Positions 60,019 to 60,444 of a stretch of DNA of 64,000 nucleotides are shown here, in pieces (positions within the stretch are counted from its first letter, which is position 1; each line of letters starts with the position of its first letter). A program made the translations under genes and the position numbers. The notes beneath the pieces are model-generated. The model searched no databases, was not told the origin of the DNA, and was given only the letters and a program-made list of their open reading frames with translations. The stretch lies in assembly GCF_988242995.1 (NCBI RefSeq), contig NZ_OZ547043.1; one strand, given 5' to 3'.

Positions 60019-60444
60019 ATGACGGCACAAATATCAGCTTACGGGCGGCTGGTGGCTGACCCGCAGTTAAAAACCACCAGCAAGGGAACACCAATGGCGC
60101 TGGTGAGTATGGCTGTTCCCCTTCCGTGCAGCCAGGCAGATGACGGAACAGCGACGATGTGGTTATCCGTCCTGGCGTTTGGCAGACAGGCCGATGCACT
60201 GGCAAAACACCAGAAAGGCGAACTGGTGAGCGTGGCGGGTAACATGCAGATAAGCCAGTGGACAGACCAGAACGGGGAAATGCGGCAGGGCTGGCAGGTC
60301 ATCGCAGACAGCGTAATCAGTGCGCGAACCGTGCGACCTGGAGGCAGGAAAGGACAGCAAGGGCAGGCTACTGACGCACTGAACAGGGCAAAGCAGCAGA
60401 CGGGCCAGCAGGATGACCCGTATGAGGACGAAATACCATTTTAA
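60019..60444 (+). CDS. ssb: single-stranded DNA-binding protein (SSB-like)
   Basis: 141-aa ORF; OB-fold-like core with WTDQNG motif as in E. coli SSB (…KWTDQSG…) and acidic C-terminal tip DDPYEDEIPF resembling SSB DDDIPF. Confidence 0.7.
   Translation: MTAQISAYGRLVADPQLKTTSKGTPMALVSMAVPLPCSQADDGTATMWLSVLAFGRQADALAKHQKGELVSVAGNMQISQWTDQNGEMRQGWQVIADSVISARTVRPGGRKGQQGQATDALNRAKQQTGQQDDPYEDEIPF

Follow-up and report, generated by a model that had tools for sequence, protein, structure and literature searches.

The closest described systems to the locus analyzed here are the PICIs of Gram-negative bacteria, together with capsid-forming PICIs (cf-PICIs) of the EcCIEDL933 type. In the PICIs, Primase, SSB and DUF5906 make up the replication category and lie beside mapped origins (PMC10111431), and the functional origin is organized as two iteron sets placed around an AT-rich region (PMC6092414). 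When cloned, a rep-ori segment of EcCICFT073 supports the replication of a plasmid in E. coli (PMC6092414). SSB goes without mention in the founding PICI paper, the cf-PICI paper, the EcCIMP1 paper and the satellite census, and in the literature that we searched we found no functional test of a PICI SSB. SSB-like partners of replication proteins are also described for SCCmec (PMC7581432, PMC10061031).

The SSB gene considered here lies in a window of 64,000 nucleotides, the whole stretch of E. coli chromosome that was analyzed, in which a first-pass annotation made from the letters had proposed an island-encoded SSB-like protein. The gene is carried by an inserted segment of 8.9 kb, located between yejM and yejO in the 3' end of tRNA-Pro(GGG). 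The same tRNA-Pro carries an empty site in E. coli strain 7/2, and comparison with this site defines the ends of the insertion and bears out that the gene is island-borne. An exact repeat of the tRNA 3' end was sought as attR and not found; the empty-site comparison showed a damaged copy, and damage to the tRNA attR fragment is possibly restricted to PICIs (PMC10111431). The features of the island are as follows, with positions counted from the first letter of the window.

54401–54417, plus strand: attL core CTCTCGTGCCGACCAAA, at the 3' end of tRNA-Pro (54339–54415)
54622–55866, plus strand: P4-type tyrosine integrase gene (Arm-DNA-bind_3, Phage_int_M and Phage_integrase)
56130–56321, plus strand: gene for an AlpA-family HTH regulator (Pfam Phage_AlpA, 28 bits against a cut-off of 21)
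56548–57155, plus strand: Ash-family/Icd-like zone, with a C4 antisense RNA and an isrK-like element inside
57363–57650, plus strand: DUF4222 gene, overlapping the replicase start
57647–59782, plus strand: DUF927 replicase gene, primase/helicase-type, 711 aa (Pfam DUF927, E = 3e-46; PHROG 1139 'DNA primase', E = 1e-166)
59807–59943, no strand assigned: presumed island replication origin, six iterons between the replicase gene and ssb
60006–60010, plus strand: Shine-Dalgarno-like GAGAG, read from the sequence, 8 nt 5' of the ssb ATG
60019–60444, plus strand: island ssb gene, 141 aa plus stop, encoding a protein identical to WP_105997177.1 in RefSeq
60480–61016, plus strand: ProQ/FinO-family gene, with a TAG at 60648–60650 and the FinO domain ORF restarting at ATG 60657
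61013–61297, plus strand: PerC-family regulator gene (RefSeq start 61019)
62100–62215, no strand assigned: second iteron cluster, ori-like or crr-like, 2.2 kb downstream of the first
62526–63122, plus strand: strain-specific cargo gene for a PmgG-like head-morphogenesis protein (PHROG 1114, E = 9e-60)
63348–63362, plus strand: attR core CTCTCGTGGACCAAA, a damaged copy of the tRNA 3' end, from the empty-site comparison

The order on the island is int, AlpA, the Ash/C4-RNA/Icd zone, DUF4222, the DUF927 replicase, the origin and SSB, followed 3' of SSB by ProQ/FinO, PerC, small ORFs and the PmgG-like gene, with all annotated genes on the plus strand and directed rightward. The integrase gene at the left end, the att cores at tRNA-Pro, the rightward genes and AlpA are PICI features. 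Capsid, terminase and Rpp were searched for among the island ORFs with Pfam, NCBIfam and PHROG and gave no match, the PmgG-like gene being the only find. By its gene content and order the island has the layout of a Gram-negative PICI (int, alpA, pri, ori) without a recognizable packaging module, and since only int, AlpA and the replicase are present, the scheme of PMC10085698 would in our judgement class it as a Type C PICI. Strict membership of the P4-like satellites was considered for the island and rejected, as no matches to sid, psu or delta occur among the island ORFs; no unassigned ORF on the island is large enough to encode Sid, Psu or Delta. PADLOC returned no defence-model match for SSB or its neighbours, and SSB as a component of a defence system was rejected on these grounds.

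Within the Ash-family zone, the C4 antisense RNA (Rfam RF01695) is found at 56826–56913 with 76 bits against a gathering score of 45, and the isrK-like element at 56725–56801 with 47 bits against a gathering score of 50. Lying together inside an Ash-family ORF, the two make up a P1/P4-type RNA immunity module, and a gene of the RNA-chaperone type (ProQ/FinO) is carried by the same island. RefSeq marks the ash gene as partial. The PmgG-like cargo protein shares 72% identity with its counterpart in the P1-family phage D6 and some 41% with those of P1 and P7, and most related islands diverge from the window island after position 62369. Taken together at the level of sequence, the PmgG-like cargo and the C4/Icd features hint at a helper phage of the P1 family.

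Apart from one SNP, the window island (~54300–63370) matches that of strain LH13-b exactly (NZ_CP100525.1; L001 among the loci that we compared), while the chromosomal flanks differ by ~1.2%, which argues for recent horizontal transfer of an island without obvious packaging genes. The single SNP, 60649 G>A, turns TGG into TAG at codon 57 of the ProQ/FinO gene, which in LH13-b is an intact CDS of 178 codons. The entire FinO domain could still be made from the ATG at 60657, two codons past the TAG.

The presumed origin is composed of two inverted GGGACA(A/G)GT iterons (59807–59824), followed by an AT-rich spacer and then by four direct GGGACAAGT iterons at 59882–59943. With a replicase gene followed by two iteron sets that flank an AT-rich region, it fits the PICI definition of PMC6092414. 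The replicase gene lies directly upstream, and ssb starts 75 bp 3' of the last of the six iterons. No promoter-like or terminator-like sites were predicted on the plus strand between the replicase gene and ssb, which would be compatible with co-transcription of the two genes. An ORF at 59861–60022, which shares an ATGA overlap with the ssb start, was rejected as a gene, being without family match and made of iterons; a small annotated gene sits at this position in related islands and is absent from the window island. The second iteron cluster is built from three GGGACAAGT on the minus strand, an AT-rich spacer and two GGGACAGGT on the plus strand. In having two clusters the window is reminiscent of the ori/crr pair of P4, and a second cluster was sought in the related islands L002–L004 and not found there.

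In the program-made ORF list, 60019–60444 on the plus strand is an ORF of 141 aa plus stop with an ATG start and the C-terminus ...QQDDPYEDEIPF (C-terminal letters TGQQDDPYEDEIPF). The ATG at 60019 is the earliest start codon past the upstream in-frame stop, and the first-pass annotation had placed its ORF at exactly these positions, with the DDPYEDEIPF ending. Alignment to the SSB family PF00436, a check proposed along with that annotation, gave 61.1 bits (E = 1.2e-16, aa 4–99), above the gathering score of 26 bits, and NCBIfam TIGR00621 was matched with 66.6 bits at a cut-off of 53.95. As the curated cut-offs of both models are exceeded, the protein belongs to the SSB family. PHROG 44 'single strand DNA binding protein' was matched as well (E = 3.7e-39), as were more than 30 solved SSBs, the best being Thermus SSB 2cwa (2.3e-12), in an alignment that extends to a terminal E-[LI]-P-F in both proteins. 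Models of enterobacterial SSBs place it far under their cut-off (30.8 against 260 for NF006533, for example). The ORF is far beyond what chance would give and is not a chance ORF. The identical protein WP_105997177.1 sits in strain LH13-b and bears the RefSeq name 'single-stranded DNA-binding protein'. Minus-strand ORFs within ssb were taken as chance, as was a minus-strand terminator-like hairpin at 60098–60073 (3 terminator-like sites found against 1.8 expected).

The encoded protein can be divided into three parts.

60019–60327 (aa 1–103), plus strand: OB-fold core, predicted to bind ssDNA (AlphaFold2 pLDDT 85–96, fold matches, alignment)
60328–60411 (aa 104–131), plus strand: linker of ~28 aa, predicted to be disordered (pLDDT below 50 from aa 104)
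60412–60441 (aa 132–141), plus strand: C-terminal tip DDPYEDEIPF (clade motif DDP[YF]-x-D-x-IPF)

An AlphaFold2 monomer model, for which 37 clade sequences served as input alignment, gives a confident OB fold over aa 1–103, with beta-barrel strands and one helix at pLDDT 85–96, and a stretch at aa 104–141 with pLDDT below 50 that presumably is a disordered tail. The best 50 matches of a Foldseek search against the PDB are all bacterial SSBs, with E down to 1.9e-10 and target TM-scores of at most 0.79. The OB-fold-like core that had been read from the letters is thus recovered both in the model, over aa 1–103, and in these top 50 fold matches. Aligned end to end with E. coli SSB (reference sequence identical to PDB 1eqq_A), the island SSB shows 24% identity. 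Its residues W48, F54 and W81 align with W54, F60 and W88 of the E. coli protein, are invariant in the 37-sequence alignment and are 99–100% conserved in 103 aligned clade sequences. Three of the four stacking aromatics of E. coli SSB (W40, W54, F60, W88) are in this way present; for W40 the alignment to E. coli SSB offers no equivalent and no aromatic in that loop, because the loop is shorter in the island SSB. The position of His55, at the tetramer interface of E. coli SSB, is taken by Leu49, which is invariant in the clade. With the W40 and His55 equivalents not conserved, the DNA-binding mode and the oligomeric state could differ from those of the E. coli protein.

In the tail, Y135, D137 and the final I-P-F of the island SSB align with F171, D173 and I-P-F of E. 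coli SSB. The first-pass annotation had described core and tail as mimicking host SSB; the acidic/hydrophobic IPF tip is indeed there, but mimicry is the wrong word for what, at 24% identity, is a true divergent homologue and no product of convergence. A C-terminal PF is found in 106 of the 120 closest cluster representatives, mostly as G/E-D-x-I-P-F, and the tip of most clade members is less acidic (GDNIPF). IPF is absent from some members, with the L003 protein ending in ...DDETAVT and Klebsiella/Raoultella copies in IPL. Against six island homologues, ssb has a dN/dS of 0.08–0.17 (Nei-Gojobori), with dS saturated for a seventh. By its substitution pattern ssb is a functional gene under purifying selection, and by profile match and predicted fold its product is a genuine, divergent homologue of the bacterial SSB family.

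With the ssb gene alone as blastn query, the clade was found in 1,795 of 5,426 complete E. coli genomes, at 2,336 places of which 2,334 are chromosomal and with up to six copies per genome. Among the matches listed, the E. coli copies carry the RefSeq label 'single-stranded DNA-binding protein'. Further members of the clade come from Salmonella, Citrobacter, Shigella, E. albertii and Raoultella in the protein database, and from Klebsiella in a plasmid search. A search of 50,697 phage records gave no relative of the island SSB above 32% identity, and a phage-derived SSB was rejected given that phage relatives stand at 32% identity or below. A plasmid SSB was likewise rejected, the closest plasmid matches inspected (H67, H68) being PICI-like elements or misassigned chromosomal fragments and not the leading regions of conjugative plasmids. 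So was an SSB of the leading region of a conjugative plasmid, in view of the 2,334 chromosomal places out of 2,336 in E. coli and of the integrative island in which the window copy resides.

Nine distinct islands were inspected, and ssb follows directly after the primase/helicase gene in all nine. The gap between replicase gene and ssb holds the island's own iterons in each of the four islands checked for repeats, and enriched 9-mers occur in this gap in two further ones. Seven of the nine have PerC after SSB, and three have ProQ/FinO. The nine include two complete capsid-forming PICIs, one PICI with capsid and TerS genes, and one Klebsiella relative assembled as a circular episome. The SSBs of the window and of L004 are 84% identical, while the replicases of these two can be aligned over their first ~160 residues only, and SSBs of the same clade (66–84% identity) are found beside unrelated helicase cores, DUF927 in some and DUF5906/D5-type in others. 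Judged from these gene neighbourhoods, SSB is not tied to one type of replicase.

Several of the related islands have features of their own. The replicases of the window and of L002–L008 are mosaic, an N-terminal domain of ~150 residues (37–47% identical) being joined to unrelated helicase cores, and some other DUF927 cores have a Zn-ribbon/Toprim N-terminus instead. L005 (NZ_CP033626.1, 22,859 bp) was deposited as circular 'plasmid unnamed1' of Klebsiella pneumoniae and carries int, HTH, AntA, Icd, primase-helicase, SSB, PerC and tape-measure genes; as its first ~4.5 kb are repeated at its end, it looks like an excised, replicating satellite of ~18 kb that was assembled with an overlap. A close relative of the window island is found in Salmonella enterica subsp. 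salamae (L008, 10582–13615, with DUF927, SSB, ProQ and PerC), and at the position of the PmgG-like gene it carries DUF2913, a reverse transcriptase (RVT_1) and another ORF as cargo. It appears that these islands have a hotspot for cargo, possibly defence genes, at their 3' end. In the O157:H7 island at yicC/dinD (L002), positions 8520–8750 between the primase gene and ssb contain TGTTCACC iterons, which we take to be the type I iteron of phage P4.

We consider it probable, from gene content, position and conservation, that the gene encodes a functional, divergent SSB, part of the replication module of a PICI-type, phage-satellite-like island and an accessory to its replication. Support of island replication was among the roles proposed at the outset, and it fits the anatomy, with ssb located 3' of the replicase gene in the window and in the nine islands. 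Single-stranded DNA binding, oligomeric state, co-transcription, binding of host partners and a benefit to replication are what we infer for the island SSB, along the following lines. Upon induction, transcription coming from the AlpA-controlled genes would proceed rightward and reach ssb after crossing the DUF927 replicase gene and the iteron origin. The replicase would melt and unwind the adjacent origin, and the island SSB would coat the exposed single strands by means of its OB fold, with W48, F54 and W81 stacking. Its D-x-IPF tail may then dock onto proteins that read the tail of host SSB (Pol III chi, PriA, RecQ, ExoI and others), and this docking would bring the host replisome to the island DNA. 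The additional supply of SSB would be of use chiefly during joint replication of island and helper phage, with host SSB becoming limiting, and a benefit felt mainly under such limitation would make the island SSB an accessory and not an essential factor. A limit to its role is set by the EcCICFT073 rep-ori segment: as this suffices for plasmid replication, host SSB can suffice, and the island SSB would be at most an enhancer and probably not essential.

The same result leaves a non-replicative role conceivable (PMC6092414), and the island SSB might act as a competitor or decoy that disturbs processes other than island replication, either by forming mixed oligomers with host SSB or by sequestering proteins of the host or the helper that recognize the SSB tail. 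Replication or recombination of the helper phage would then be disturbed, or ssDNA/SSB signals would be masked from defence systems. PICIs do interfere with their helpers (PMC6092414), and the host-like IPF tip is conserved across the clade, as such a role would have it. The invariable site beside replicase and origin points to replication, however, the DNA-stacking aromatics are conserved along with the tip and would not be needed by a pure tail decoy, and the PADLOC search came back without a defence model, so that we hold this explanation to be unlikely. Competition with host SSB for its tail partners and interaction with helper-phage proteins, both put forward in the first-pass annotation, are speculation. 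Still somewhat less likely, in our estimate, is the more specific idea that, while the helper infects, a conserved IPF tail on a divergent OB core redirects the interactome of host SSB or starves it. Pol III chi, PriA or RecQ might, for example, be pulled off helper-phage DNA, or satellite replication intermediates might be shielded from defence systems that sense phage SSB or ssDNA. Were this true, PICI SSBs would be a new class of helper-interference or anti-defence factor.

The tight linkage to the replicase gene in every context examined could also mean that the protein is a dedicated subunit, an SSB-like partner on which the DUF927 primase/helicase depends for loading or priming, and not a general coat. 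SSB-like partners do occur in the replication operons of mobile elements, with SCCmec as a precedent (PMC7581432, PMC10061031). Yet the same SSB clade accompanies unrelated helicase cores and differing N-terminal primase domains, and the complete canonical SSB architecture is kept together with a host-type tip; we regard a dedicated subunit as very unlikely. Scarcely credible is a decaying passenger gene without current function on a degraded island. Such decay would agree with the lack of a recognizable packaging module, with the ash gene that is partial in RefSeq and with the nonsense codon in the neighbouring ProQ/FinO gene. Against it, the ssb ORF is intact, with low dN/dS and invariant key residues, in a clade present in about a third of the E. 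coli genomes and on an island whose near-identity in two strains implies recent transfer.

We thus retain an accessory role in island replication as the preferred explanation. The identification of the gene is correct but ordinary, because such genes are already annotated in that third of E. coli genomes. The gene had been annotated and SSB had been listed in the PICI replication module. As a discovery it carries little weight, since RefSeq name, clade frequency and PICI replication listing all pre-exist. Because PICI SSBs recur on islands whose replicases are unrelated, they offer a clean and inexpensive way to ask how satellites, in competition with a helper phage, obtain the resources for their replication.

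Compared with known systems, the window island is nearest to the Gram-negative PICIs and the EcCIEDL933-type cf-PICIs, whose SSBs belong to the same clade (66–89% identity) and occupy the same position, behind replicase and iteron origin and usually followed by PerC. It differs from them in being without capsid, terminase and Rpp-type packaging, its PmgG-like gene being the sole cargo, and in having a ProQ/FinO gene between SSB and PerC. With E. coli SSB (PDB 1eqq), the island protein shares the OB fold, the equivalents of W54, F60 and W88 and a disordered linker, and with its tip, MDFDDDIPF, the aromatic at −6, the Asp at −4 and the terminal IPF. The E. coli protein is longer (178 aa against 141), and the island linker is much shorter and not Gly/Pro-rich. 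P1 and the F plasmid encode SSBs of their own, and phage and plasmid SSBs resemble the present case in that a mobile element brings its own SSB with a host-compatible tail. Satellite phage P4 shares the integrase, AlpA, a C4-type antisense RNA within an Ash/Icd zone, a multifunctional replicase and the occurrence of iterons in two separate places; in contrast to P4, the window replicase is of the DUF927 type, and the phage records searched hold no close relative of the SSB. SCCmec, finally, is likewise a chromosomal island in which a DUF927-related helicase (Cch, DUF927-type) lies beside an ssDNA-binding protein, and the NCBIfam model SCCmec Cch1 finds a weak match in the window island. SCCmec belongs to another host phylum, however, and the partner in the window is a canonical PF00436 SSB with a host-type tail that is found alongside several types of helicase.
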